Shown here piece by piece: positions 5,854-48,704 of a stretch of 64,000 bases of DNA (position 1 is its first letter; each line of letters opens with the position of its first letter). Origin of the DNA: Myxococcota bacterium (lineage in GTDB: Bacteria; Myxococcota_A; UBA9160; UBA6930); contig OZ245015.1 of the NCBI GenBank assembly GCA_965223705.1, positions 258,582 to 322,581 of the forward strand, in the 5' to 3' direction. The position numbers were made by a program, and so were the translations under genes. Under the pieces are notes generated by a model. It saw nothing but the letters and a program-made list of their open reading frames with translations, was not told the origin of the DNA and searched no databases.

Positions 5854-7059
5854 ATGGCCAATATCGAGATGTATTCGAAATCCTGGTGCCCCTACTGCGA
5901 CCGAGCGAAAAGCTTGCTCAGCGCGAAAGGTCAAACCTGGACCGAGATCGACGTTGAAGATGAAGCGGGCCGACTCGAGGAAATGCTCGAGCGTTCCGGT
6001 GGGCGCCGAACCGTGCCTCAGATTTTCATCGATGGTCAGCACGTCGGCGGTTTCGACGATCTCGCGTCCCTCGAACAGGCAGGGGAGCTCGATCCTCTGC
6101 TCGGGGGCCGCGAAGGGACGGATCAGGGTTCTCTGCACGTCAAGGTCCTGATCGTCGGCAGCGGCCCCGCCGGCTACACCGCCGCGATCTACGCGGCTCG
6201 GGCCGAGCTCGCCCCCGTGGTGCTGGCGGGGTTCCAGTTCGGTGGCCAGCTCATGCTCACCACCGAAGTGGAGAACTATCCGGGGTTCCCCGAGGCGGTG
6301 ACGGGCCCCGACATGATGGACATGTTCCAGAAGCAGGCGGAGCGCTTCGGCGCCCGCGTGTTGCTCGAGGACGCGACGCGACTCGATCTGTCCCGACGCC
6401 CGTTCCGTGTCGAGACCGCCGAGCGGCGCTTCACCGCGGACGCCCTCATTGTCGCGACCGGCGCCTCCGCCCGCTGGCTCGGCCTGCCCTCGGAGGAGCG
6501 GCTGATGAATCGCGGAGTCTCGGCGTGTGCGACCTGCGACGGCGCCCTCTACCGCGACAAGGCGATGGCGGTGGTGGGTGGCGGCGATACCGCGATGGAA
6601 GAAGCGCTGTTCTTGACACGCTACGCGACGAAGGTCACGGTCATCCATCGACGCGACGAGCTGCGAGCCTCGAAGATCATGCAAGAGCGCGCCTTGAAGA
6701 ACGAGAAGATCGAGTTTTGCTGGAACGCCGAGGTCGACGAAGTGCTCGGCGACGAGTTTGTCACCGGAGTGCGGGTCCGAGACACGAAAGACGGCGGAAC
6801 GCGCGAAATTCCCATCGAAGCGCTCTTTATCGCGATCGGGCACAAACCGAATACCGATCTCGTGCGAGATCAGCTCGAAGTGGACGGTGTCGGCTACCTG
6901 AAAGTCGAGCCGGGCACGTCGCGCACCGCGATCGAAGGCGTGTTCGCGTGCGGCGACGTGATGGATCCCGTTTATCGACAGGCGATCACGGCCGCGGGAA
7001 GCGGCTGTATGGCCGCGATCGATTCCGAGCGCTGGCTCGCGGCGCAAGGGATCGAGTGA
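5854..7059 (+). CDS. Glutaredoxin / low-Mr thioredoxin reductase fusion protein
   Basis: N-terminal Grx3-like domain: YSKSWCPYCDRAK ... TVPQIFIDGQHVGGFDD. It is followed by a TrxB-like domain: VLIVGSGPAGYTAAIYAARA, redox CATCDG, GGGDTAMEEA. ATG 5854 is preceded by GGAGAGG; the ORF track starts at TTG 5842. Confidence 0.85.
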   Translation: MANIEMYSKSWCPYCDRAKSLLSAKGQTWTEIDVEDEAGRLEEMLERSGGRRTVPQIFIDGQHVGGFDDLASLEQAGELDPLLGGREGTDQGSLHVKVLIVGSGPAGYTAAIYAARAELAPVVLAGFQFGGQLMLTTEVENYPGFPEAVTGPDMMDMFQKQAERFGARVLLEDATRLDLSRRPFRVETAERRFTADALIVATGASARWLGLPSEERLMNRGVSACATCDGALYRDKAMAVVGGGDTAMEEALFLTRYATKVTVIHRRDELRASKIMQERALKNEKIEFCWNAEVDEVLGDEFVTGVRVRDTKDGGTREIPIEALFIAIGHKPNTDLVRDQLEVDGVGYLKVEPGTSRTAIEGVFACGDVMDPVYRQAITAAGSGCMAAIDSERWLAAQGIE

Positions 7060-16315: not shown

Positions 16316-17710
16316 ATGGATCACGATGACGCGGTCAAGCCGGATCCCCGGCGGGGGCTTCCCCAGGTCGACGCATGGATCCGAAAGCTCCTCGACGAGG
16401 ATCTGGGCTTTGCAGAGTGGGTAATTCGACACGTTTCCCGCCGCGAGATCGCCGCCGCACGGGAGCGAGTCAGCGCGGGGCAGGAAGCGGGCGATCTCCG
16501 CAGCCTCTGTATCGCAGCGGCCGCTCGGCTCTCCCAACCGCATCCGAGGCGCGTCGTCAACGGAACGGGCGTGATGGTCCACACGAATCTGGGACGGTCC
16601 GCGCTCTCGCCACGGGCGACGCGCGCCGTGGCCGAGGCCGCGGCCGGTTACAGCGACCTCGAACTCGACCTTGCGAGCGGACGCCGCGGCAACCGCTTGG
16701 GGCGACTGGCCGACCTGCTGTGCGCGGCTTCGGGAGCGGAGGCGGCGCTCGCCGTCAACAACAACGCCGCCGCCCTGTTGCTGCTCGCGAACACCTTGGC
16801 GCGCGGCCGGGAAGTGGTGGTGTCACGAGGCGAGTTGGTCGAGATCGGCGGATCCTTTCGGGTGCCCGATATTCTCGAGCGTGCGGATGTACGCCTTGTC
16901 GAAGTGGGTACGACGAACCGCACGCATCCCCACGACTACCGGGACGCCATCGGACCCGAGACGGGCCTGCTGCTCAAGGTCCACCCGAGCAACTTTGCGC
17001 AGCAGGGCTATGTCACCGACGTGTCGCTCGAAGCGCTGGTCGGGATCGGCGCTGAGATGGGTGTTCCCGTGGTCGAAGATTTGGGAAGCGGCTTGTTCGA
17101 AACGCCCGACAAGCGCGGCTTGCCCTCGGAAACCGACGTGCGGAGTCGGCTCCGAACGGGTGTCGACGCGCTTTGCTTTTCCGGTGACAAACTTTTGGGC
17201 GGTCCCCAGGCGGGCCTCATCCTCGGTCGCACCGACGTCGTCGCGGAAGCGAAGCGCAACCCGCTCGCTCGTGCGCTCCGACTCGACAAGCTGTCGATCG
17301 CGGCGCTCGACGCGACGTTGCGCGACCTCCTCGAGGATGCGCCCGAATCGCGCCCGCCGACGCTACACCAAATCGAGACGCCCTTGACCCAGTTGTCCGA
17401 GCGCGCGGAAGCGCTGGCGCGAGCGCTCGAAGAACGCTGCGGCCCGCGTCTCAAAGTGACGGTGGAAGTCGCGCACTCATCCGTCGGGGGCGGGAGCGTT
17501 CCCGGTTTCGAGCTCGAGACCCGCGTGGTGTCGCTTCGGGGCGAGGATGCCTTGCGACTCGCGCGGCGTCTGCGGGAAGCCCCGGTTCCCGTCCTCACGC
17601 GTGTCCGAGATGATGCGGTCACCATCGATGTGAGGACTCTACTCGCCGGAGACGACGTCTTATGCTGCGAGGCCGTCGCTTGGGCCTTCGAGGGTGCGGC
17701 GAGCCTTTAG
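16316..17710 (+). CDS. selA: L-seryl-tRNA(Sec) selenium transferase (selenocysteine synthase)
   Basis: VNGTGVMVHTNLGRS and the PLP-lysine context FSGDKLLGGPQAG. ATG 16316 is preceded by GAGGAG. The upstream part of track ORF 16043.. is not protein-like. Confidence 0.9.
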   Translation: MDHDDAVKPDPRRGLPQVDAWIRKLLDEDLGFAEWVIRHVSRREIAAARERVSAGQEAGDLRSLCIAAAARLSQPHPRRVVNGTGVMVHTNLGRSALSPRATRAVAEAAAGYSDLELDLASGRRGNRLGRLADLLCAASGAEAALAVNNNAAALLLLANTLARGREVVVSRGELVEIGGSFRVPDILERADVRLVEVGTTNRTHPHDYRDAIGPETGLLLKVHPSNFAQQGYVTDVSLEALVGIGAEMGVPVVEDLGSGLFETPDKRGLPSETDVRSRLRTGVDALCFSGDKLLGGPQAGLILGRTDVVAEAKRNPLARALRLDKLSIAALDATLRDLLEDAPESRPPTLHQIETPLTQLSERAEALARALEERCGPRLKVTVEVAHSSVGGGSVPGFELETRVVSLRGEDALRLARRLREAPVPVLTRVRDDAVTIDVRTLLAGDDVLCCEAVAWAFEGAASL

Positions 17711-17730
17711 CCTCTGTAACCTCGACGGCG

Positions 17731-18327
17731 ATGCTATCGAGCAGCGTGCTGGTCCTGAACCGGTCCTACCTCCCGGTGCACGTCACGTCGGCGAAGCGTG
17801 CGTTCTCACTCCTGTATCAGGGGATCGCGCGGGCCGTCGACGAAGAGTTTCAGACCTTCGATTTCGAGGAGTGGAGCCAGCTCTCGACGCTGCGCGAGGG
17901 CGACAGCGTCGGAACGATCGGAGGTCGCATTCTGATCCCGCGGGTGATCGTACTCGTCGCCTTCGACCGCCTCCCGAAACGCCACGTCCGCTTCAGTCGC
18001 ATCAACATCATGACGCGCGACGGTTTTCGCTGTCAGTACTGCGGCGACCATCCGTCGCGGGCAGAACTCAACCTCGATCACGTCGTACCGCGCGCGCAGG
18101 GCGGCAAGAGTACGTGGGAGAACGTGGTGACCAGCTGTGTCGACTGCAATCGCCGAAAGGGCGGCCGCACACCGGCGCAGGCCCGGATGAAACTGCGCAG
18201 TCGCCCGGTGCGCCCCCGTTGGACACCGCTCTCGCACTTGATTCTTTCGAGTCAGCGTTACGAGCAGTGGCGGCCTTTCCTCAACGTGGTCGACGCTTCG
18301 TACTGGAACGCGGAGCTCAACGAGTAA
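17731..18327 (+). CDS. HNH endonuclease family protein
   Basis: RCQYCG ... LNLDHVVPRAQGG ... WENVVTSCVDCNRRKG forms an HNH/zinc-ribbon core. ATG at 17731. Confidence 0.8.
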   Translation: MLSSSVLVLNRSYLPVHVTSAKRAFSLLYQGIARAVDEEFQTFDFEEWSQLSTLREGDSVGTIGGRILIPRVIVLVAFDRLPKRHVRFSRINIMTRDGFRCQYCGDHPSRAELNLDHVVPRAQGGKSTWENVVTSCVDCNRRKGGRTPAQARMKLRSRPVRPRWTPLSHLILSSQRYEQWRPFLNVVDASYWNAELNE

Positions 18328-18345
18328 CCGGAGGTCCCCCCCGAC

Positions 18346-19278
18346 ATGCGGTTCCAACAGCCGCAGCAGCGAAGCGCCCACATGATCGCCGTCGCCGGTG
18401 GCAAGGGGGGTGTGGGCAAGACGTTCTTTTCGGCGAACCTGGCGGTTCTCCTGGCGCGCGCCGGCGTGCACGTCGTCGCGGTCGATACGGATCTCGAAGG
18501 GGCGAACCTCCACACCTGGCTCGGTGTGAAGTCGCCCAAGCGGACGCTGGCCGATTTCGTTTCGGGGCGCGAGGACGATCCGAGGCGACTCCTCGTCGAG
18601 ACGCCCATTCCGAAGCTCGAGCTCATCGCCGCGACGGAGGGCCATCTGACCGACGCCCAGCCGAGTGCAGAGCGCCGCGCCGAGCTTCTGCAGGGGCTCC
18701 GGTCCATGTCGTGCGACGCGGTGCTCCTCGACTGCGGTGCGGGAACCCACGCGGCCAACGTCGATTACTTCCTCGCCGGCGACGACGGCGTGTTGATCTT
18801 CCACCCGGAACCGACTTCCGTCGAGAACGCGTACAACTTCCTGCGCTCCGTTCTCTTGCGGCGCATGGAGCTCGCCATGTTGAAGCCGGAAGTCCAGGCG
18901 TGCGTGCGCGAGGCGATGGACATGCGCAACGAGCGGGGCATCCGCACGCCGCGCGATCTGCTGCGTGCGGTGGCGGCGCTCGATTCCGAGGAAGCGAAAC
19001 GATTCCAGCGCGTGTTGGCGACGCTCAAGCCGCGTATCGTAGTGAACGAAGTGACGACCGCCGAAGACGTCAAGCTCGGTTTTTCCGTGCGCGGCGTTTG
19101 TCGGAACTTTTTCGGCGTGCAAGCGGATTACCTGGGGTACATGAACAGCGATCCCCGCGTGCGCAAAGCGCTTCGCGCCGGTGTTCCCATCGTCGAGTCG
19201 GACGCCGAAACCGAGGTCTCGATTTACTTGTCGCGCATCGCGCGCAAATTGATGCGCGAGGCAGGTCTCGCCACGTGA
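18346..19278 (+). CDS. MinD/ParA/FlhG-superfamily P-loop ATPase
   Basis: Deviant Walker A IAVAGGKGGVGKT and Walker B-like VLLDCGAG. 310 aa. Confidence 0.8.
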   Translation: MRFQQPQQRSAHMIAVAGGKGGVGKTFFSANLAVLLARAGVHVVAVDTDLEGANLHTWLGVKSPKRTLADFVSGREDDPRRLLVETPIPKLELIAATEGHLTDAQPSAERRAELLQGLRSMSCDAVLLDCGAGTHAANVDYFLAGDDGVLIFHPEPTSVENAYNFLRSVLLRRMELAMLKPEVQACVREAMDMRNERGIRTPRDLLRAVAALDSEEAKRFQRVLATLKPRIVVNEVTTAEDVKLGFSVRGVCRNFFGVQADYLGYMNSDPRVRKALRAGVPIVESDAETEVSIYLSRIARKLMREAGLAT

Positions 19279-20012
19279 AGAGCTTCGCCGAGCTCACGTA
19301 TTACGAACTGCTGGAAATCGCACCCGACGCCGGGAACCAAGAGCTCGAGCGCGCCTACCGCATGGCACAAGCGACGTACGGCGAATCGTCGATGGCGACC
19401 TACTCGCTCTACGGCGATGACGAACTCTCGGTGATCCGGGCGAGAATCGACGAGGCGTACCGTGTGCTGCGAGAGCCGACGGAGCGATCGCGCTACGACC
19501 GCGGGCTCGCCCGAGCAGAGGCGCTTGCGGAAGACGAAGACGAGGAGGAGATGACGCTCGATTTCCCCCTCGATGATCTCGAGGCGTTCGATCCGCGGCC
19601 TGAGCCGCTGCCCGAGAGCGGTGGGCGCGGGTTCACCGAGGCGAGGTTCGCGCCGCACCCGGAGCCACGTCCGGAGCGTCTCCTCGAGATCCAACCGCCG
19701 GTGACCCAGTTCGAGCCGGTGGAAGAAGACGACGGTACGCCGTTTAACGGAGCGCGCTTGCGCCGCGCTCGCTTGGCTCGGGGCATCGACCTCGACCAGG
19801 TCGCCTCGGTGACGAAAGTGACGGTCGCGCACTTGCAGTCCATCGAAGACGATCGTTACGGGGATCTTCCCGCGCCGGTCTACGCCCGGGGCTTCGTCTC
19901 CGCGTACGCCCGCTGTATCGGCCTCGACGCCGAGCGCGTCTGCCGCGATTACATGGACGCGCTGCGAAGTGCGGAAGCGCGCGTCAACAACCGGCCGCGG
20001 CGTCGGGCGTAG
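19275..20012 (+). CDS. Degenerate J-domain-like / XRE (RodZ-like) helix-turn-helix protein
   Basis: GTG 19275 overlaps the upstream stop (GTGA). The N-terminus TYYELLEIAPDAGNQELERAYR resembles J-domain helices I-II but no HPD tripeptide is present. The C-terminal HTH is LRRARLARGIDLDQVASVTKVTVAHLQSIE. The middle section is acidic and Pro-rich. Confidence 0.7.
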   Translation: MKSFAELTYYELLEIAPDAGNQELERAYRMAQATYGESSMATYSLYGDDELSVIRARIDEAYRVLREPTERSRYDRGLARAEALAEDEDEEEMTLDFPLDDLEAFDPRPEPLPESGGRGFTEARFAPHPEPRPERLLEIQPPVTQFEPVEEDDGTPFNGARLRRARLARGIDLDQVASVTKVTVAHLQSIEDDRYGDLPAPVYARGFVSAYARCIGLDAERVCRDYMDALRSAEARVNNRPRRRA

Positions 20013-42612: not shown

Positions 42613-44337
42613 CTAGGCGCTGCGCACGACGCCACCGGGGCGGGCCCCCGTCGTTTGCCCGTGCTCTTGCACCGCTTGCCCTGAGACGTACGTCGCGACG
42701 TAACCCTTCGCGGTTTGCATCAAGCGCGGCATACCGGCCGGGAGATCGGCGATGACGTGCGGGTGATCGACGTGAAGCGCATCGAAATCGATCAAGTTGA
42801 TGTCGGCCTTCGCGCCCGCAACGAGGGTCCCTCGATCGTTCAAGCCGAAGAGCTTCGCGTTGTCGCTCGTCAGCTTCTTGACCACGAACTCGAGCGGCAT
42901 GTGGTACGGGTGATCGGCGTCGAAGTCGCGCACCCAGTGCGTCAGCATGTAGGTGTGGATGCTCGCGTCGATGACCTGTCGCACGTGGGCGCCGGCATCG
43001 GATAAGCCCAAAACGGCAATGTCGTCGCGGATCATTTCCGCCATCGCGTCGGAATTGCCTTCGACGTAGTTCACGACGGAATACATCAAGAACGTGTCGC
43101 CGTCGTTCGCGAGCATCATGTCGTACGCGACCTCCCGCGGATCGCGGTTCTCGCGCGCCGCGATCTTCGCCACGGAATCGTTCGTGTCCGGCGTGTACGA
43201 GAGCTTCTCGCCCATCAGGTACGTGCTCTCCCACACCGTCGGGCTGTTGTAGATCAGCGACATGCCGGTGGTGTTGGGATCTTTTTCGGAGAGCAGGGTT
43301 CGCTTGAGTTCCGGATCGCGCAGCCGCGCGATTTTTCCCGAGAGGGGAAGACCTTTCAGCGGCGCGAAGCTCGGTAGATACTCGAACGGATTGTCGCCTT
43401 GGAAGCTGAACAGGATCGAGGGCGGGCGCGCGGCCACTTGCGGAACGAGCGTTACGCCGTCGGCCCGCGCCGTGCGACAGATCTCGAGCTGCTCGCGCCA
43501 CTGGCTCGAATCGAGTCCGTGCTGAAGCAGCAGGAAGACCAACGGCACGCCGGTCGCGCGCGCAATGCGCTCCATGAGCCGCGTCTCTTCGAGAAGCGCG
43601 TCCGATTCGCCCGCGATGCCGTTCGGCACCATCTCGAAGACGCCGCGGCCCGAGTCTTTGACCGCTTGTGCGAGCCCGATCAGCTCGTCTTCGCTCGCGT
43701 ACGTGCCCGGTACCGGCTCGCCGTCGATCCCACAATGAATAAGGGTTCGAGAGGACGAGAAGCCAAGCGCCCCGGCGTTCATCGAGTCGCGAACCACGCC
43801 CGCCATCTTCGCGATGTCAGCCGGCGTCGCTTCTTCGTTGCGAGCACCGCGATCGCCCATCACGTAGGCGCGAACGGCGCCGTGGGCGATCATCGCGCCC
43901 ACATCGAGTGTGCGCGGCAGGCGTCCGAGGGAGTCCAAGTACTCGCCGAAGCTCTCCCAATCCCAGGGCATGCCTTCCGCCAGGGCCTTGCCGGGGATGT
44001 CTTCCACGCCTTCCATCAGGCCGATCAACCATTCGTGCCGATCCGGGGTCGCCGGGGCGAAGCCGACTCCGCAGTTGCCCATGACGACCGTCGAAACGCC
44101 GTGCCAGACCGAAGGCGCCATATCGGCGTCCCAGGTCGCTTGGCCGTCGTAGTGGGTGTGGATGTCGACCCATCCCGGTGTCACCAGCAGACCGTCCGCA
44201 TCGATGGTTTGCCGCGCATCGCCCAGATCGCGGCCGATCGCTGCGATTTTGCCGTCGGCGACGGCGACGTCCGCTGTGCTCGGGGGGGCGCCGGTGCCAT
44301 CGACCACGGTTCCAGCGCGCAAGATGAGATCGTGCAT
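42613..44337 (-). CDS. N-acyl-D-amino-acid deacylase (D-aminoacylase) family amidohydrolase
   Basis: MHDLILRAGTVVDGTG ... LVTPGWVDIHTHYDG. ATG 44337 is preceded by GGGAGG. Confidence 0.8.
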   Translation of the reverse strand: MHDLILRAGTVVDGTGAPPSTADVAVADGKIAAIGRDLGDARQTIDADGLLVTPGWVDIHTHYDGQATWDADMAPSVWHGVSTVVMGNCGVGFAPATPDRHEWLIGLMEGVEDIPGKALAEGMPWDWESFGEYLDSLGRLPRTLDVGAMIAHGAVRAYVMGDRGARNEEATPADIAKMAGVVRDSMNAGALGFSSSRTLIHCGIDGEPVPGTYASEDELIGLAQAVKDSGRGVFEMVPNGIAGESDALLEETRLMERIARATGVPLVFLLLQHGLDSSQWREQLEICRTARADGVTLVPQVAARPPSILFSFQGDNPFEYLPSFAPLKGLPLSGKIARLRDPELKRTLLSEKDPNTTGMSLIYNSPTVWESTYLMGEKLSYTPDTNDSVAKIAARENRDPREVAYDMMLANDGDTFLMYSVVNYVEGNSDAMAEMIRDDIAVLGLSDAGAHVRQVIDASIHTYMLTHWVRDFDADHPYHMPLEFVVKKLTSDNAKLFGLNDRGTLVAGAKADINLIDFDALHVDHPHVIADLPAGMPRLMQTAKGYVATYVSGQAVQEHGQTTGARPGGVVRSA

Positions 44338-44384
44338 AATGGCCTCCCTGGGAACGTCCCCAGGGTACCGCACGGAGGCTCCTC

Positions 44385-44915
44385 GTGGTCACACTCGCGG
44401 TCTGGATCTTCATCGCCGCCTCGTTGATCGGCGTCTTCGACATCATCTACTTCCATTTGTTGAAGTACCGCCTCTACGCGCACGAAGACTCGCGGGTAGA
44501 ACATTGGGCCCACACCGTGCGGATGTTCTGGCAGGTTCCGCTCGTCTATCTCGTGTTTGCCCGAAACGTCGGCGGCGAGCTTCTTTGGCTGGCGGTCGCC
44601 GTGGTGGCGATCGACATCGCGATCGAGGCCTGGGACCTCGTCGTCGAGCACGGAAGCCGCGAAAGTCTCGGTGGGCTCGGCCGCGCCGAGTACCTGATCC
44701 ACATGTATTCGACGATGGGCCGCGCGGCGAGCTTCGCGCTGATCTTCGGCGCGAAACCGTTGGGCGGTTGGACCTCGATCGCGCCTCACACGCTCCCGAC
44801 GGACTATCCGGTCATCGCGTCGGTCGCCGCCGGGCTCTTTATTCCGTCGGCCTTCGCGATCGCCCTGATCCACGTGTGGCTCTTGCAACCCCGCTACCGC
44901 GAGGTGACGTCATGA
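44385..44915 (+). CDS. Integral membrane protein, unknown function
   Basis: 176 aa with 4-5 hydrophobic helices (WIFIAASLIGVFDIIYF, LLWLAVAVVAIDIAI, IASVAAGLFIPSAFAIALI). Confidence 0.55.
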   Translation: MVTLAVWIFIAASLIGVFDIIYFHLLKYRLYAHEDSRVEHWAHTVRMFWQVPLVYLVFARNVGGELLWLAVAVVAIDIAIEAWDLVVEHGSRESLGGLGRAEYLIHMYSTMGRAASFALIFGAKPLGGWTSIAPHTLPTDYPVIASVAAGLFIPSAFAIALIHVWLLQPRYREVTS

Positions 44916-44952
44916 CCACCGACGTCGATGCGCGAGTTCTTTCGGGACTCGT

Positions 44953-46065
44953 TCAGCCCGTTTCGGGCTCGTGTTGGAACTGTGCGTAGATCTCCAAGAG
45001 CCCGGGGATCATCGCGACGCCCCAGGCTCCGAGGGCGAGCAGAACCCAATGCGTCGGTAGCAGCGCGAACGCCGCAACCCACGCAGCGACGAAGAGCGCG
45101 ACCCGTCGCATCATCTTCCCGGAGTTCGCCGACGGCCTGTCGCCCGGCCGCCCGAGCGGGAACGCTTTCGGTCGCAAGAACCAGCCGTGCGCGAGCAGGA
45201 GAAGCAAGAAGTGCGGCCAGGAAAGCTCGTTTCCCGAGAGGACCGGGTTTTCGTCGAGCGGCGATTCGGCACCGTCGGCGAGACGCGCCTGCAATGCTTC
45301 CCAGGTGTACGTCGGGTCCGGTCGACCGCCCGCGCCGGACATGTTGTCGCGCGTCGGTCGGCAACGCCATCGGTAGAGGGGGCGGCCATCTTTCGCGAGG
45401 CCGAGGACCGCCGGTTGGTAGTAGCCCTTCGGATGACTCGCCCACGGACGGGAGCGCAAGTGCCCGTAGTTCTCGTTCGCGTAGATTTCGACGAGGCCCC
45501 GCTCGCGGCATATCTCGAGAATCTCGTGATGCGGGTCGCCGACGGCCGGGAAGCCGAATTCCCAGTCTTCCTCGGCTTCCGTCGCCAGATGCTGTGGTTC
45601 GCTCGTGATGGCGAAGACTTCGCCGCCCGCTTCGCGGATCTTGTCGACGACTCCGGACTTTCGGTAGCTCCGCAACTCGAAGCGACACGGAGGTCACCAG
45701 CGACCTCGGTAGAAGAGAAGGAGAATGAAGTTGTAGCGCTCGAGCTGAGCGTCGATCCACGTATGGCGGACACCCCGCGGAGGATCGAGTAGGGCGGGGA
45801 TGGTTTCCGTCGGGTCCGCCTGAACAGCTTCCACTGAGAAGCCCGACCCGTTCGGCGTAACGCAAACTTGCTCGCGCAGGCACTGTTCGCCTTCGCAGAG
45901 GATCACACCGAATTCTCGCGGCTCACCCGGCGCGGCGGAAAGTGCGGTGGCCGTGTCGACGACGCCCGTCAGTCGAAACGCCGTGCCGCGCGTATCGTTC
46001 AACCACTGAACCGCGGCAGAAGCCGCCGGTTCGAGTGCTTTCGGGATTCCCTCGGGCTCGCCCAT
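44953..46065 (-). CDS. Predicted selenoprotein: membrane-anchored PRX_like2/AhpC-TSA-type redoxin with U-P-P-C active site (in-frame TGA at 45694-45696)
   Basis: ORFs 45694..46065 and 44953..45675 share one frame. Read-through gives FILLLFYRGRW-[TGA]-PPCRFELRSYRKSGVVDKIREAGGEVFAITSEP. The stop aligns with the first Cys of the FYRGxWCxxC motif. The C-terminus has hydrophobic helices. Confidence 0.7.
45668..45692 (-). promoter_or_regulatory. Candidate SECIS-like hairpin directly 3' of the in-frame UGA
   Basis: mRNA sequence: UGA C CUCCGUG UCGCUUCGAGU UGCGGAG. That gives 5 Watson-Crick and 2 G-U pairs with an 11-nt loop containing G. The loop is closer to the UGA than in the E. coli fdhF model, so this is tentative. 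Confidence 0.3.
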
Positions 46066-46101
46066 CGGACGAAGATACCAGATGCCTCGGTCACCAGAGT
46101 T

Positions 46102-46656
46102 CTAGTGGTGCTCTTGTAAGAACTTTGCGATGGCGCGTCCCGCCGCCAAGGCCGCGCGCTCCTCCGGGTCTTCCCAGGTCTTCTTGATGTTGCTGTTCCA
46201 TCCGACGGGTCCGCCAGCCTCGAAGCTTTGGGTGTGGACGGAGCTCGCGGTCGCTTGGAACTTGCCCAGGATTTTGTCGCCGCTGGGATCTCGCAAAACG
46301 CAGTGCACTTCGATTTCCGCTTCGCCTCCCGCGCCGAGAATGCGCCGGGTCCGGTTCGCCGGAACGAAACGCGGGATACGAAGCTCGAGAAGAAGCGCGC
46401 CATCGCGCGCCTTGCCGTCCGTTTCGACGAGCGAGAACTCGCCTGTGGGATCGAGGGTTTTCTTTGTGGCCGAAGCGACCGCGACGGCGCGGCTGCGCTT
46501 CTCTTCTGCGCGGTCCATGACGCGAAACACGAGCTTGTCGTAGTCCGCGACCGACGGATCGAGCGGCGCCGCGGATTCGAGCTTGCTCGGGGAGATGCAG
46601 CCCGTGAGAGCCGCGGCGCTCAGCAACGAAAACGCGAGAAAGAGACGGCGGTGCAT
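46102..46656 (-). CDS. Putative lipoprotein, unknown function, upstream of the selenoprotein gene
   Basis: ATG 46656 follows AAGGAG. Signal and lipobox MHRRLFLAFSLLSAAALTGC. 184 aa. Confidence 0.65.
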   Translation of the reverse strand: MHRRLFLAFSLLSAAALTGCISPSKLESAAPLDPSVADYDKLVFRVMDRAEEKRSRAVAVASATKKTLDPTGEFSLVETDGKARDGALLLELRIPRFVPANRTRRILGAGGEAEIEVHCVLRDPSGDKILGKFQATASSVHTQSFEAGGPVGWNSNIKKTWEDPEERAALAAGRAIAKFLQEHH

Positions 46657-46860
46657 CAAGGCTCCTTGCAGGGAGGATGTCCGATCCTTCGGAGAGGGCC
46701 ACGAACCCCTTGAGTAAGGCGACGATCTGCTGCCATCTCTCGTATTGGGTGGGTTTTCGCCCCAAGAGCCGGCAAGTTCATCATCGGCGGACCTTCTTCT
46801 TGCTGGGGCTCGCAGGCTTGAGCCACGCCGGTCGCCGGCGACCGCGCCTGAGTTGAAGAA

Positions 46861-46891
46861 GGTCCGCCCGAACACTACGCCCGGGCGGACC
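46861..46891 (-). terminator. Candidate intrinsic terminator after the secreted-protein gene
   Basis: 10-bp inverted repeat ggtccgcccg / cgggcggacc with an 11-nt loop, 9 nt after the stop. On the minus strand it is followed by UUCUUCAA. Confidence 0.4.
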
Positions 46892-46899
46892 TCTCCTCG

Positions 46900-47928
46900 C
46901 TAGGGCAACGAGTCGCAGCGCGCGTCGACGTTGCAGGCGACCAATCGGTTGGTCTCTCCATCCTCAGGCTTGATCTCGAAGAACGGACCCAGGTGCTTTG
47001 CGTAGAACTTGTACTCGAAGCCGTCGGGCTCGAGCGGCGTGAAGTCTCGCGTGACGAGACAATCACCGGCGCTGCACAAGTGCTCGGCGAGTGCCGGGTC
47101 CATGAACTCGTCGAGCTCCGGGTTCTCACCGTAGCGATAGGTCGTCGTGATGACGGTGGCCAGATCCTCCGCGTTGCTCGCGGACCACTCCTGCCGGTAG
47201 GTCATCCCCGGTCGCGGATCGGCCGGGACCAAGATCCCCGGTGCATCTCCGTCCCGGTCGGCCTTGAACGAACCGTCGATCGCGATGAGTTCCGCCTCCA
47301 TCGGTTGATCGCCTTCGAAGAACTCGAAGTCTTCGACCGCCTCCCCGCAGTAGTAGAGCGAGCCGTCGCGATGTAGAGCGAACCAGTCGTCGGTGTCTTC
47401 GCCTCCGTCCTCCTTCGTGACGAGGTCGTTTACAACGACGCAGGTCACATCGTCGATCAATTTCGTCTTCTCCGTCACGACCACCCGATTGCTCTCGTCC
47501 TCGGTCTCAAATTCCCAGAAGAAACCCGTGGCGATAGGGAAGTACGGGTTTTGCCGCGACGGATTGTCAAAGTTGGTGATGAAGTCTTCGGGCTCGAACT
47601 CCGGGTCGTAGCGCCCCTCCCCGACCAGATCACAGACATCGAGGCGCGCCCGCCATTGGCTTCGACACAGCGTCGTCGCTTCGGAACGTTCCGCGCGGGC
47701 CTCCCTGACGCATTCGCGTCGCTCGCGGCGTTCCGACTCTTGGAGGCAGATGGCCTTGCCGACGAACGCGTCATCTCGAATTTCGTGCAGGCACGCGGCG
47801 TATTGGAGAAGGGCCGTGCGCGAGCAGACGGGTGGCCCCGCACTGCTCGAGGACGGGTAGGCGAGGAGTGCAGCAGCGGCGAAGAGACCCCATGTCGGGA
47901 TCGTTCCAACGGATTTCTGAAAACTCAT
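46900..47928 (-). CDS. Secreted Cys-containing acidic protein, unknown function
   Basis: ATG 47928 follows AAGGAGG. Signal peptide MSFQKSVGTIPTWGLFAAAALLAYPSSSSA. The mature part is acidic with several Cys pairs. Confidence 0.65.
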   Translation of the reverse strand: MSFQKSVGTIPTWGLFAAAALLAYPSSSSAGPPVCSRTALLQYAACLHEIRDDAFVGKAICLQESERRERRECVREARAERSEATTLCRSQWRARLDVCDLVGEGRYDPEFEPEDFITNFDNPSRQNPYFPIATGFFWEFETEDESNRVVVTEKTKLIDDVTCVVVNDLVTKEDGGEDTDDWFALHRDGSLYYCGEAVEDFEFFEGDQPMEAELIAIDGSFKADRDGDAPGILVPADPRPGMTYRQEWSASNAEDLATVITTTYRYGENPELDEFMDPALAEHLCSAGDCLVTRDFTPLEPDGFEYKFYAKHLGPFFEIKPEDGETNRLVACNVDARCDSLP

Positions 47929-48051
47929 GATCGATTCCTCCTTGGCGGGCCACTCGGGCCCTGTCCCGCCGAGGTTCCGACGTAGAGCGAGCCGGGACAT
48001 CGACCGTCCCGCGTAGGTGGATCGTCGCTTTGTGGTACGCGGCCTCTCGCG

Positions 48052-48603
48052 TTACGCGTCTTCGCGGCGCGCAGCGGAATCGTGCGCTTGGGGAGGAAGG
48101 AGATCTTCGAGGAAGAAGGCGCAGAATGCACTTCGGCCGGGCAGGTTCGATTTTTGGTAGGCCATCCGAGCCTGGTGTCGCACCGTCGCTTCACTGGTCC
48201 CGCGGAGGTTGGCGATTTCCCCATGGGAGAAGCCTTTCAACATCAACAAGCCCACCTCCCGCTCGGCTTGGGTGAGCTTCCAAGCCTCGAACTGCTTCGC
48301 GATTTCCTCCCCCAGGCCTGAGAGGTAGCTCTGCGCACGATCGCGCCAGGCGGCGCCCTCCGCGCGAGCGATTTGCAAATCGCGGGTTATGGCGATCTTT
48401 TCCTCCCTTTCTTGCTGAAAGCGGCCCGTCAAGAGCGTCACCCCCACCGCAGAGGCGACAATGAGCGCCGTTTGCAACGCGTCGCCGAGGAAATCACCGA
48501 GCTCGATCGGCTCGTCTTCGGTGACGAATTCGACTCCCATCAACAGCAGGAAGGCCCCAATCCCGATCGCGGCCCAGCGTATTCGAATCGCTCGCTCGTC
48601 CAT
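48052..48603 (-). CDS. Membrane-associated LuxR-family (HTH) transcriptional regulator
   Basis: C-terminal LTQAEREVGLLMLKGFSHGEIANLRGTSEATVRHQARMAYQK is a LuxR/GerE HTH. The N-terminus has two hydrophobic helices. The start is either 48603 or 48666. Confidence 0.7.
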   Translation of the reverse strand: MDERAIRIRWAAIGIGAFLLLMGVEFVTEDEPIELGDFLGDALQTALIVASAVGVTLLTGRFQQEREEKIAITRDLQIARAEGAAWRDRAQSYLSGLGEEIAKQFEAWKLTQAEREVGLLMLKGFSHGEIANLRGTSEATVRHQARMAYQKSNLPGRSAFCAFFLEDLLPPQAHDSAARREDA

Positions 48604-48704
48604 TTCAGTGACTCCAACTCCGGTCCAGGTCCCCAAGGGGTCGCGCAGGGCGGGGCGTACGTCCATGCGACAAATCGCGTACTCAGCCCGCTGACGACGA
48701 CGGC

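Follow-up and report, generated by a model that had tools for sequence, protein, structure and literature searches.

What is encoded by a gene that public annotation breaks in two at an in-frame TGA codon, and does its product work together with that of the lipoprotein gene directly upstream? This question is raised by a stretch of 64,000 nucleotides from a Myxococcota bacterium (assembly GCA_965223705.1, contig OZ245015.1, positions 258,582 to 322,581 of the forward strand; hereafter the window, to which all unprefixed coordinates refer). From the sequence alone, a first-pass annotation had predicted a membrane-tethered selenocysteine (Sec) redoxin at this locus and had proposed that it forms a functional unit with the lipoprotein, serving a redox role in the cell envelope. 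Our analysis leads to a different reading, to which we assign a probability of about 0.75: the locus holds a single gene for a 370-residue selenoprotein, translated through one UGA codon, which would act as a selenol/thiol oxidoreductase facing the cytoplasm and anchored in the membrane by a helical hairpin, with the lipoprotein as a mere neighbour and not a partner.

Decoding of the in-frame UGA

The two halves of the gene have separate database entries (P0121 and P0001). The N-terminal open reading frame (ORF) runs for 123 codons (46065..45697, minus strand) and ends ...NFILLLFYRGRW (...LLLFYRGRW) at the TGA at 45696..45694, past which the same frame continues with PPCRFELRSYRKSG... (PPCRFELRSY...) for 246 further codons to a stop at 44953. 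The G+C content at third codon positions (GC3) is 0.70 and 0.80 in the coding frame of the two halves, in agreement with coding in these frames of the window. A scan of one genome per species placed relatives of the gene in 208 stretches, from which 80 loci were fetched; 79 of them were evaluable at the Sec codon, the single exception (L065) having its start cut off. The homologous codon is TGA, never TAA or TAG, in 79/79 of these loci, which come from at least seven bacterial lineages, and it stands in the context [FYV]YRG[LRF]W-TGA-PPCR[FSLA]ELR with coding conservation on both sides.

The nucleotides that follow the UGA underscore this pattern, as they contain a short hairpin of the bacterial Sec insertion sequence (SECIS) type (Table 1). 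In a gap-free alignment of the 48 nt from the UGA onward in 81 sequences, its consensus is GCUYCG-AGUUR-CGRRGC; 99.8% of the stem cells are paired, two of the pairs account for 33 double-sided changes (U-A<->C-G), none of 500 shuffles equals this pairing and covariation, and slid registers drop to 20-52% paired. Residues G21, U22 and U23 of the loop are invariant. The codons inside the hairpin are frozen, with Glu as GAG in 81/81, Leu as UUR in 81/81 and never as CUN, and the first Arg as CGC in 80/81, whereas the two Pro codons just before it use all four third bases; residue swaps at U+5 (F, S or L) are mirrored across the stem by changes on its other strand. Taken together, the pairing, the double-sided changes, the shuffles and the contrast between frozen and free codons argue that the hairpin is under selection. 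It is visible only from the 81-sequence alignment, the single-sequence minimum free energy (MFE) fold after the UGA of the window being unremarkable (z = +0.39), and no Rfam model matches it. The minimal element of E. coli fdhF is a 17-nt hairpin with G/U in the loop and an 11-nt spacer, and the hairpin described here comes close to it in geometry, with the same length and a G/U loop.

Forms of the protein with Cys in place of Sec are rare, and we have seen one genuine example. This protein (P0042, 389 residues) covers 98% of the read-through query and reads FYRGFWCPPC, with TGT as the codon, which makes it a full-length Cys homologue; its hairpin is degraded, the stem carrying a C-C mismatch. 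A second candidate (P0004, 317 residues) was rejected as a full-length Cys form, since comparison with L002:5980-6027 identifies an assembly frameshift, in which the TGA has lost its A and the residues past the Trp read CPPAAPSCGAMLKLG and not UPPCRSELRSYVETG. The case is a caution for counting Cys homologues of selenoproteins in long-read metagenome-assembled genomes (MAGs).

A gene for SelA lies in the window as well, some 27 kb from that of the selenoprotein, at about 16352..17707 on the plus strand (TIGR00474, 485 bits; cut-off 268). selB, selC and selD are not in the 64-kb window, in which ARAGORN finds tRNA-Met only and no tRNA-Sec; the ORF after selA (17694-20012) has only a RodZ-like helix-turn-helix match and is not selB. 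Elsewhere, selB and selA directly adjoin the family gene in five Opitutales/Verrucomicrobia loci (L040, L055, L057, L058 and L073; for example L057:6726-10262), the only recurrent neighbourhood of the family and one confined to a single clade. With TGA at every evaluable locus, a covarying hairpin, a homologue that carries TGT and SelA in the window, the earlier prediction of a selenoprotein is borne out: the UGA at 45696..45694 is almost certainly decoded as Sec under the direction of the downstream 17-nt hairpin.

Domain architecture and probable membrane location

The predicted protein is built from three parts (Table 1), which we compared in alignments of 74 read-through proteins at full length, with invariant columns taken from a 49-sequence subset below 80% identity. 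The N-terminal part, previously described as a region without recognisable motif that contains a CEGEQC...C cluster, proves to be a genuine conserved domain. It is present in every locus examined and recurs together with the TGA and the C-terminal region in 79/79 evaluable loci, well in excess of what chance would give. Of the cluster, C57 and C62 are invariant, but the third Cys, C68, is not conserved and is Arg in most homologues. The possibility that the true start is internal, and the domain therefore mis-called, can be set aside: the start of every homologue lies at an equivalent M-x(3-5)-[DE]-x-IP, and the frame of the window gene offers no earlier start than the selenoprotein ATG, because the TAG of the lipoprotein gene lies 36 nt away in the same frame (46066-46104, minus strand) with no start codon between the two. 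That ATG is not preceded by a recognisable Shine-Dalgarno sequence.

AlphaFold2 (AF2) models the window's own N-terminal ORF with a predicted local distance difference test score (pLDDT) of about 90 over residues 10-80, as a helix (9-26) followed by four antiparallel strands, and the same elements appear in the full-length AF2 model of the Cys homologue (mean pLDDT 82; predicted template modelling score, pTM, 0.74). In that homologue the two Cys are spaced by 8 residues as against 4, and the turn of the β hairpin is four residues longer, which fits a variable turn. A phmmer search with residues 1-92 against 1.84 billion representatives gave 57 hits, mostly of 80-140 residues, the length of the N-terminal ORF fragment; none clearly placed the domain in a different architecture, the few longer hits not having been inspected. 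Foldseek found no significant match to the domain in the PDB, the best being cystatin/monellin-like (probability 0.96, E = 0.37). The domain thus appears confined to this selenoprotein family.

The second part is the UxxC redoxin domain that the first-pass annotation had named. Pfam AhpC-TSA (pfam00578) matches residues 112-183 of the window protein with 35.2 bits, above its cut-off of 26, and 49/49 family members match both AhpC-TSA (best E 1.4e-12) and Redoxin. Searched with Foldseek, the model of the Cys homologue resembles SMc02350 (3u5r), ResA and PrxQ, with E about 1e-4 and an identity near 15%. Among PDB sequences, a profile search gave nothing at E <= 0.01, and NCBIfam gave only ResA and SelL-related matches, far below threshold; no curated family model there covers the domain. 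Invariant residues of the family are C57, C62, U/C124, C127, Q217 and P218, and A292, H293 and G294-F296 (AHGWF) are nearly so. The active site in the window, Y-R-G-R-W-U-P-P-C, departs from the peroxiredoxin (Prx) motif PxxxTxxC, with Arg at the position of the Pro and Sec at that of the Thr. In this register, which we take from FYPxxxTxxC, E. coli BCP and PRX_like2 of CDD, U124 falls on the Thr of the Prx motif and C127 on the peroxidatic Cys. The invariant Q217-P218 would stand where thiol-disulfide oxidoreductases have their cis-Pro, and by manual alignment this is presumably also the place of the active-site Arg of Prx. Because the Prx Pro is replaced by Arg, Sec takes the Thr register and an invariant Gln-Pro occupies the place of the cis-Pro, we lean towards describing the domain as a thioredoxin-like UxxC oxidoreductase and not as a peroxiredoxin.

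In the C-terminal part, two of the two to three hydrophobic helices noted earlier form a conserved hairpin (residues 322-358), with Kyte-Doolittle 19-residue means of 1.4-2.0, Hessa medians of +1.1 and +1.8 kcal/mol and, in the model of the Cys homologue, two long terminal helices (329-349 and 352-377). The remaining segment, residues 283-297, has neither the length nor the hydrophobicity for a membrane span: its summed Hessa median is +8.4 kcal/mol per 19 residues over the 74 sequences, and it is an 11-residue helix in the same model. In the basic loop that joins it to the hairpin, R321 is invariant, and R298, F302, P303, L304 and R306 are almost so. Judged by these hydropathy values and their conservation, the C-terminus in all probability anchors the protein in the membrane. 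A signal peptide or hydrophobic N-terminal segment is absent from all 74 family sequences (best 19-residue window >= +9 kcal/mol); this absence, together with the strongly basic loop before the hairpin, makes it likely that the catalytic part lies on the inner membrane's cytoplasmic side. The simplest topology would place the N-terminus inside, pass the helical hairpin in-out-in, leave the C-terminus inside and set the short helix and the basic loop at the cytoplasmic interface. The short helix, the loop and the hairpin are also spanned by a sub-threshold Pfam FA_desaturase match (residues ~264-350, window 44992-45260), seen in 19/49 members at 19-20 bits against 29.7 over profile positions 74-169 of 253; it is probably compositional.

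We suggest a mechanism in which the selenolate of U124 would attack an oxidised substrate and a U124-C127 selenenylsulfide would then form, to be re-reduced possibly via the Cys pair of the N-terminal domain or via thioredoxin. In such a cycle C57 and C62 may serve as a relay or for regulation, and the last ~37 residues, as an in-out-in helical hairpin, would hold the catalytic part at the cytoplasmic face. The short helix and the basic loop, both conserved, would lie at the membrane interface, which suggests a membrane-associated substrate. We entertain only tentatively, and consider rather improbable, the bolder proposal of a new class of near-obligate cytoplasm-facing selenoenzyme in which the N-terminal dithiol relays electrons to the UxxC site and the substrate is embedded in the membrane; under that proposal lipid hydroperoxides, quinones or another lipophilic oxidant would be conceivable, if equally speculative, substrates. 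If it were true, the family would be a bacterial counterpart, in logic, of the membrane-tethered eukaryotic selenoenzymes (deiodinases and GPx4), and the near-total lack of Cys forms would mean that the chemistry needs selenium.

Known relatives and rival readings

The selenoprotein nature of the family has been on record since 2008, and the family is otherwise uncharacterised. In the accessible part of Dataset S1 of the Global Ocean Sampling (GOS) selenoproteome (Zhang & Gladyshev 2008, PMC2398784), reads of this exact family stand under the heading '#Prx-like 1', for example JCVI_READ_1056998 (MQAENHIPEILKTPALAGVEWINA...YYRGLWUPPCRFELRSY...) and JCVI_READ_3057796, and the string WUPPCR occurs there at least 30 times. 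The Prx-like 1 group (pfam00578, UxxC) has 225 sequences and also includes short single-domain proteins (PMC2398784); aligned by hhalign with one such short GOS read, the family scores a probability of 96.6%, with U aligned to U. The window protein therefore very probably belongs to the family catalogued as Prx-like 1. The text of that paper is without the word 'transmembrane', and its domain-fusion section covers Prx, Prx-like 3, a UGSC-containing protein and SelD, with no entry for Prx-like 1 (PMC2398784). A 2026 review (PMC13188914) places a 'Prx-like thiol:disulfide oxidoreductase, PF00578, UxxC' among its high-confidence predicted families. The literature was also searched for bacterial Prx-like selenoproteins with a transmembrane part, with no relevant result, and in the portions of the literature that were accessible we found no description of the three-part architecture, the near-exclusive use of Sec or the probable membrane location.

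Searched against proteins, the read-through sequence has 465 hits, and nearly all of the best 120 are the C-terminal half, at 230-246 residues; essentially every genome or MAG with the gene has it annotated as two 'hypothetical proteins'. Its recognition as one selenoprotein corrects the annotation of many marine Gammaproteobacteria, Myxococcota, Acidobacteriota, Verrucomicrobiota and others, with the closest relatives of the window gene in Myxococcota/Myxococcales MAGs. Widespread, probably membrane-anchored and almost without Cys counterparts, the family is a reasonable candidate for studying why selenium is needed.

Several known systems resemble parts of this architecture. With Prx-like 1, the window subfamily has in common a UxxC motif with Sec first in FYRGxWUPxCR, the AhpC/TSA match and a marine distribution. 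The short members of that group are single-domain proteins of about 130 residues, to which the window subfamily adds the ~90-residue N-terminal domain with its Cys pair, an insertion with many conserved His, Trp and Arg residues, and a C-terminal membrane region of ~90 residues. The ResA/TlpA/CcmG proteins likewise have a thioredoxin fold, an XxxC motif followed by a cis-Pro loop and a membrane tether, and give the top Foldseek and NCBIfam similarities. They have an N-terminal anchor or signal, a periplasmic location, a CxxC motif and cytochrome-maturation operons, whereas the window family has a C-terminal hairpin anchor, UxxC, no signal peptide and no conserved operon; the ResA/TlpA-type model NF002854 gives the window protein 17 bits against a cut-off of 170. 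The PrxQ/BCP peroxiredoxins belong to the same Pfam family and fold, with C127 in what we take to be the register of their peroxidatic Cys. They differ in that FYRGRWUPPC replaces PxxxTxxC, so that the Pro and the Thr of the motif are absent, in that Gln-Pro stands at the expected Prx Arg, and in an identity of about 15%.

Iodothyronine deiodinases and bacterial deiodinase-like proteins also hold Sec in a Prx-like thioredoxin fold, are tethered to the membrane and have U-P-P at the active site. Their anchor is N-terminal and their Sec lies in the peroxidatic-Cys register, whereas the anchor of the window protein is C-terminal and its Sec falls three residues before that register; Pfam T4_deiodinase does not match the window protein. 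SelL, the SelL-related proteins and PRX_like2 (cd02970) likewise have a Prx-like fold, and the second position of their redox motif falls on the Prx peroxidatic Cys; they are without the N-terminal domain and the membrane hairpin. The NCBIfam model SelL_rel_redox matches 37/49 family members weakly, and NF040769 gives the window protein 12.4 bits against a cut-off of 120.

The proposed partnership with the lipoprotein depends on whether the two genes are linked beyond this genome, and we find that they are not. A tblastn search with the lipoprotein against the 80 homologous loci at E <= 1e-3 gave 0/80, with the N-terminal domain, as a control, giving 79, and among 5.8 billion proteins the lipoprotein has no homologue but itself. 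It has a lipobox, and its DUF4410 match, at 22.8 bits, is below the gathering cut-off of 26. Directly upstream of the selenoprotein gene in its two closest relatives (L081 and L082, from Myxococcota-type MAGs, at 76-78% identity) stands a sodium:solute symporter, with or without DUF4404, and there too the gene begins 5-36 nt past its upstream neighbour, whichever that is. The neighbours of the Cys homologue are unrelated, and when the ORFs flanking the family gene within 4 kb were clustered de novo, no family of neighbours recurred beyond 9 of about 79 loci. Neither the lipoprotein nor any other neighbour is therefore conserved beside the family. We regard the lipoprotein, by its sequence, as a lineage-specific orphan, seen in this genome only and not a conserved partner, and its adjacency to the selenoprotein gene as a local accident of gene order; if the cytoplasmic topology is right, the Sec domain and the lipoprotein lie on opposite sides of the membrane. 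The partnership, from which the interest of the locus had been argued, can be dropped.

Some points weigh against our reading. The full-length structure was modelled on the Cys homologue, at 45% identity, and not on the window protein; the mapping of U124 and C127 onto the Prx Thr and peroxidatic Cys is read from the register of the motif and not from a computed alignment; the topology is derived from AF2 secondary structure, plain sums of hydropathy and the positive-inside rule; an invariant pair of Cys across a β hairpin would be more usual in an exported protein that has structural disulfides; and the spacer between UGA and hairpin is 10 nt, as against 11 nt in E. coli fdhF. The most serious competitor, which we hold to be possible although clearly less probable than an oxidoreductase, is a true peroxidase at the membrane surface, in which Sec124 would reduce hydroperoxides, for example of membrane lipids, and be oxidised to a selenenic acid, with C127 as the resolving residue, much as in GPx4 or Prx. 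AhpC/TSA as the best Pfam family and PrxQ/BCP structures among the top fold matches speak for it, as does C127 in the presumed peroxidatic register; Sec is typical of peroxide-reducing enzymes, and a membrane anchor with a conserved interfacial segment would suit lipid substrates. The same fold search, however, matches ResA-type oxidoreductases as well as Prx, the active site has Arg for Pro and Sec for Thr where PxxxTxxC would be expected, and the Prx Arg is apparently replaced by Gln-Pro, that is, by the cis-Pro hallmark of thiol-disulfide oxidoreductases.

We consider it unlikely that the locus encodes an envelope redox pair after all, with the Sec domain in the periplasm and residues 283-297 as a third transmembrane helix in an N-out arrangement. 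The shared strand, the distance of 36 nt, the strong upstream hairpin and the convergent gene downstream would suit such a pair, which is nevertheless contradicted by the absence of the lipoprotein from 80/80 loci and from the closest relatives, and of any homologue in all that was searched. On the side of topology, residues 283-297 are flanked by Trp and followed by the basic loop, so that three N-out helices would also satisfy the positive-inside rule, the invariant Cys pair across the hairpin would suit a periplasmic disulfide and the ResA/TlpA-like relatives are periplasmic; yet 0/74 members have a signal peptide or hydrophobic N-terminus, export of the 280-residue N-terminal part without a signal would be unexpected, and the segment in question costs about +8 kcal/mol and forms an 11-residue helix in the model. 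That the TGA is a genuine stop between two small proteins of 123 and 240 residues is exceedingly improbable. Public gene calls do split the gene in essentially all genomes, and the MFE fold of the window sequence by itself is unexceptional (z = +0.39), but such a split would fall in the middle of the thioredoxin fold, between β1 and the active-site helix, at a codon that is TGA and never TAA or TAG in 79/79 loci with conserved flanking codons, followed by a covarying hairpin, in a family with a contiguous Cys form and a genome with SelA.

Locus layout and neighbouring genes

The lipoprotein gene and the hairpin upstream of it, noted in the first-pass annotation at 46861..46891, were both recovered from the sequence (Table 1); the gap between the end of the lipoprotein gene and the selenoprotein ATG is exactly 36 nt.

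Table 1. Positions of the selenoprotein gene, its predicted parts and the adjoining features in the window
Feature	Position	Strand	Details
Selenoprotein gene	44953..46065	-	370 aa through one UGA read-through; two ORFs (123 aa + 240 aa) in public annotation
Family-specific N-terminal domain, aa 1-90	45796..46065	-	Long helix packed on a 4-stranded antiparallel sheet (alpha+beta)
Cys pair C57...C62 (C-E-G-E-Q-C)	45880..45897	-	Invariant in 49/49 sequences; on two strands of one beta hairpin
Thioredoxin-fold domain, AhpC/TSA type, aa ~91-262	45280..45795	-	Invariant Q217-P218; Pfam AhpC-TSA
Predicted UGA Sec codon (U124)	45694..45696	-	TGA in 79/79 evaluable homologous loci; TGT in P0042
U-P-P-C redox motif (U124, C127)	45685..45696	-	W123, U/C124, P125, P126, C127 and R128 invariant in 49 sequences
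Bacterial SECIS-type hairpin, GCUUCG-AGUUG-CGGAGC	45667..45683	-	17 nt; 6-bp stem, 5-nt loop; begins 10 nt past the UGA
Short hydrophobic helix WPHFLLLLLAHGWFL, aa 283-297	45175..45219	-	Probably interfacial, not spanning; G294, W295, F296 invariant
Conserved basic loop RPKAFPLGRPGDRPSANSGKMMRR, aa 298-321	45103..45174	-	Family mean 6.7 K+R vs 2.0 D+E
Hydrophobic helical hairpin, aa 322-358	44992..45102	-	Probable membrane anchor; invariant P337 at the turn
Lipoprotein gene	46102..46656	-	184 aa; signal MHRRLFLAFSLLSAAALTG/C; lipobox LTG/C; AAGGAG 5 nt before the ATG
GC-rich hairpin	core 46860..46892, extendable 46855..46898	-	Directly after the stop of the upstream 366-aa gene

The GC-rich hairpin has a folding energy of -34.5 kcal/mol (z = -5.3), with 0/200 shuffles as stable, and is likely a terminator that bounds the two-gene stretch. 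A consensus promoter and terminator scan of 44300-48200 gave nothing useful, the hairpin going uncalled owing to its poor U tract. Since the lipoprotein and selenoprotein genes share a strand and a 36-nt gap, with this hairpin upstream and a convergent gene downstream, they are probably co-transcribed in this genome.

The convergent ORF (44385-44915, plus strand) encodes a hydrophobic protein of 176 residues with a very high GC3 (0.86) and no family match. Its end and the stop of the selenoprotein gene are 38 nt apart, and only one locus, L080, has a weak homologue of it close to the family gene. On the other side, the 366-residue ORF (46900-48000, minus strand) has a signal-like hydrophobic stretch, FAAAALLAYPSSSSA, with no Pfam or NCBIfam family and no homologue among the 80 related loci. 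The product of a gene at 48052-48666 (minus strand) has 204 residues, a membrane segment at its N-terminus and, at its C-terminus, a helix-turn-helix like that of LuxR or of sigma-70 region 4; its match to the NCBIfam LIC13292 family regulator, 76 bits, is below the cut-off of 200. Among the related loci, a small TehB-like gene (PF09313) lies downstream of the selenoprotein gene in both closest relatives, adjacent in L082 (5789-6064) and three genes off in L081 (7814-8089). A Pseudomonadales locus (L053:5499-7919) carries two tandem selenoprotein copies (TGA at 5980 and 7173), each with the N-terminal domain, the SECIS-type hairpin and the membrane region.

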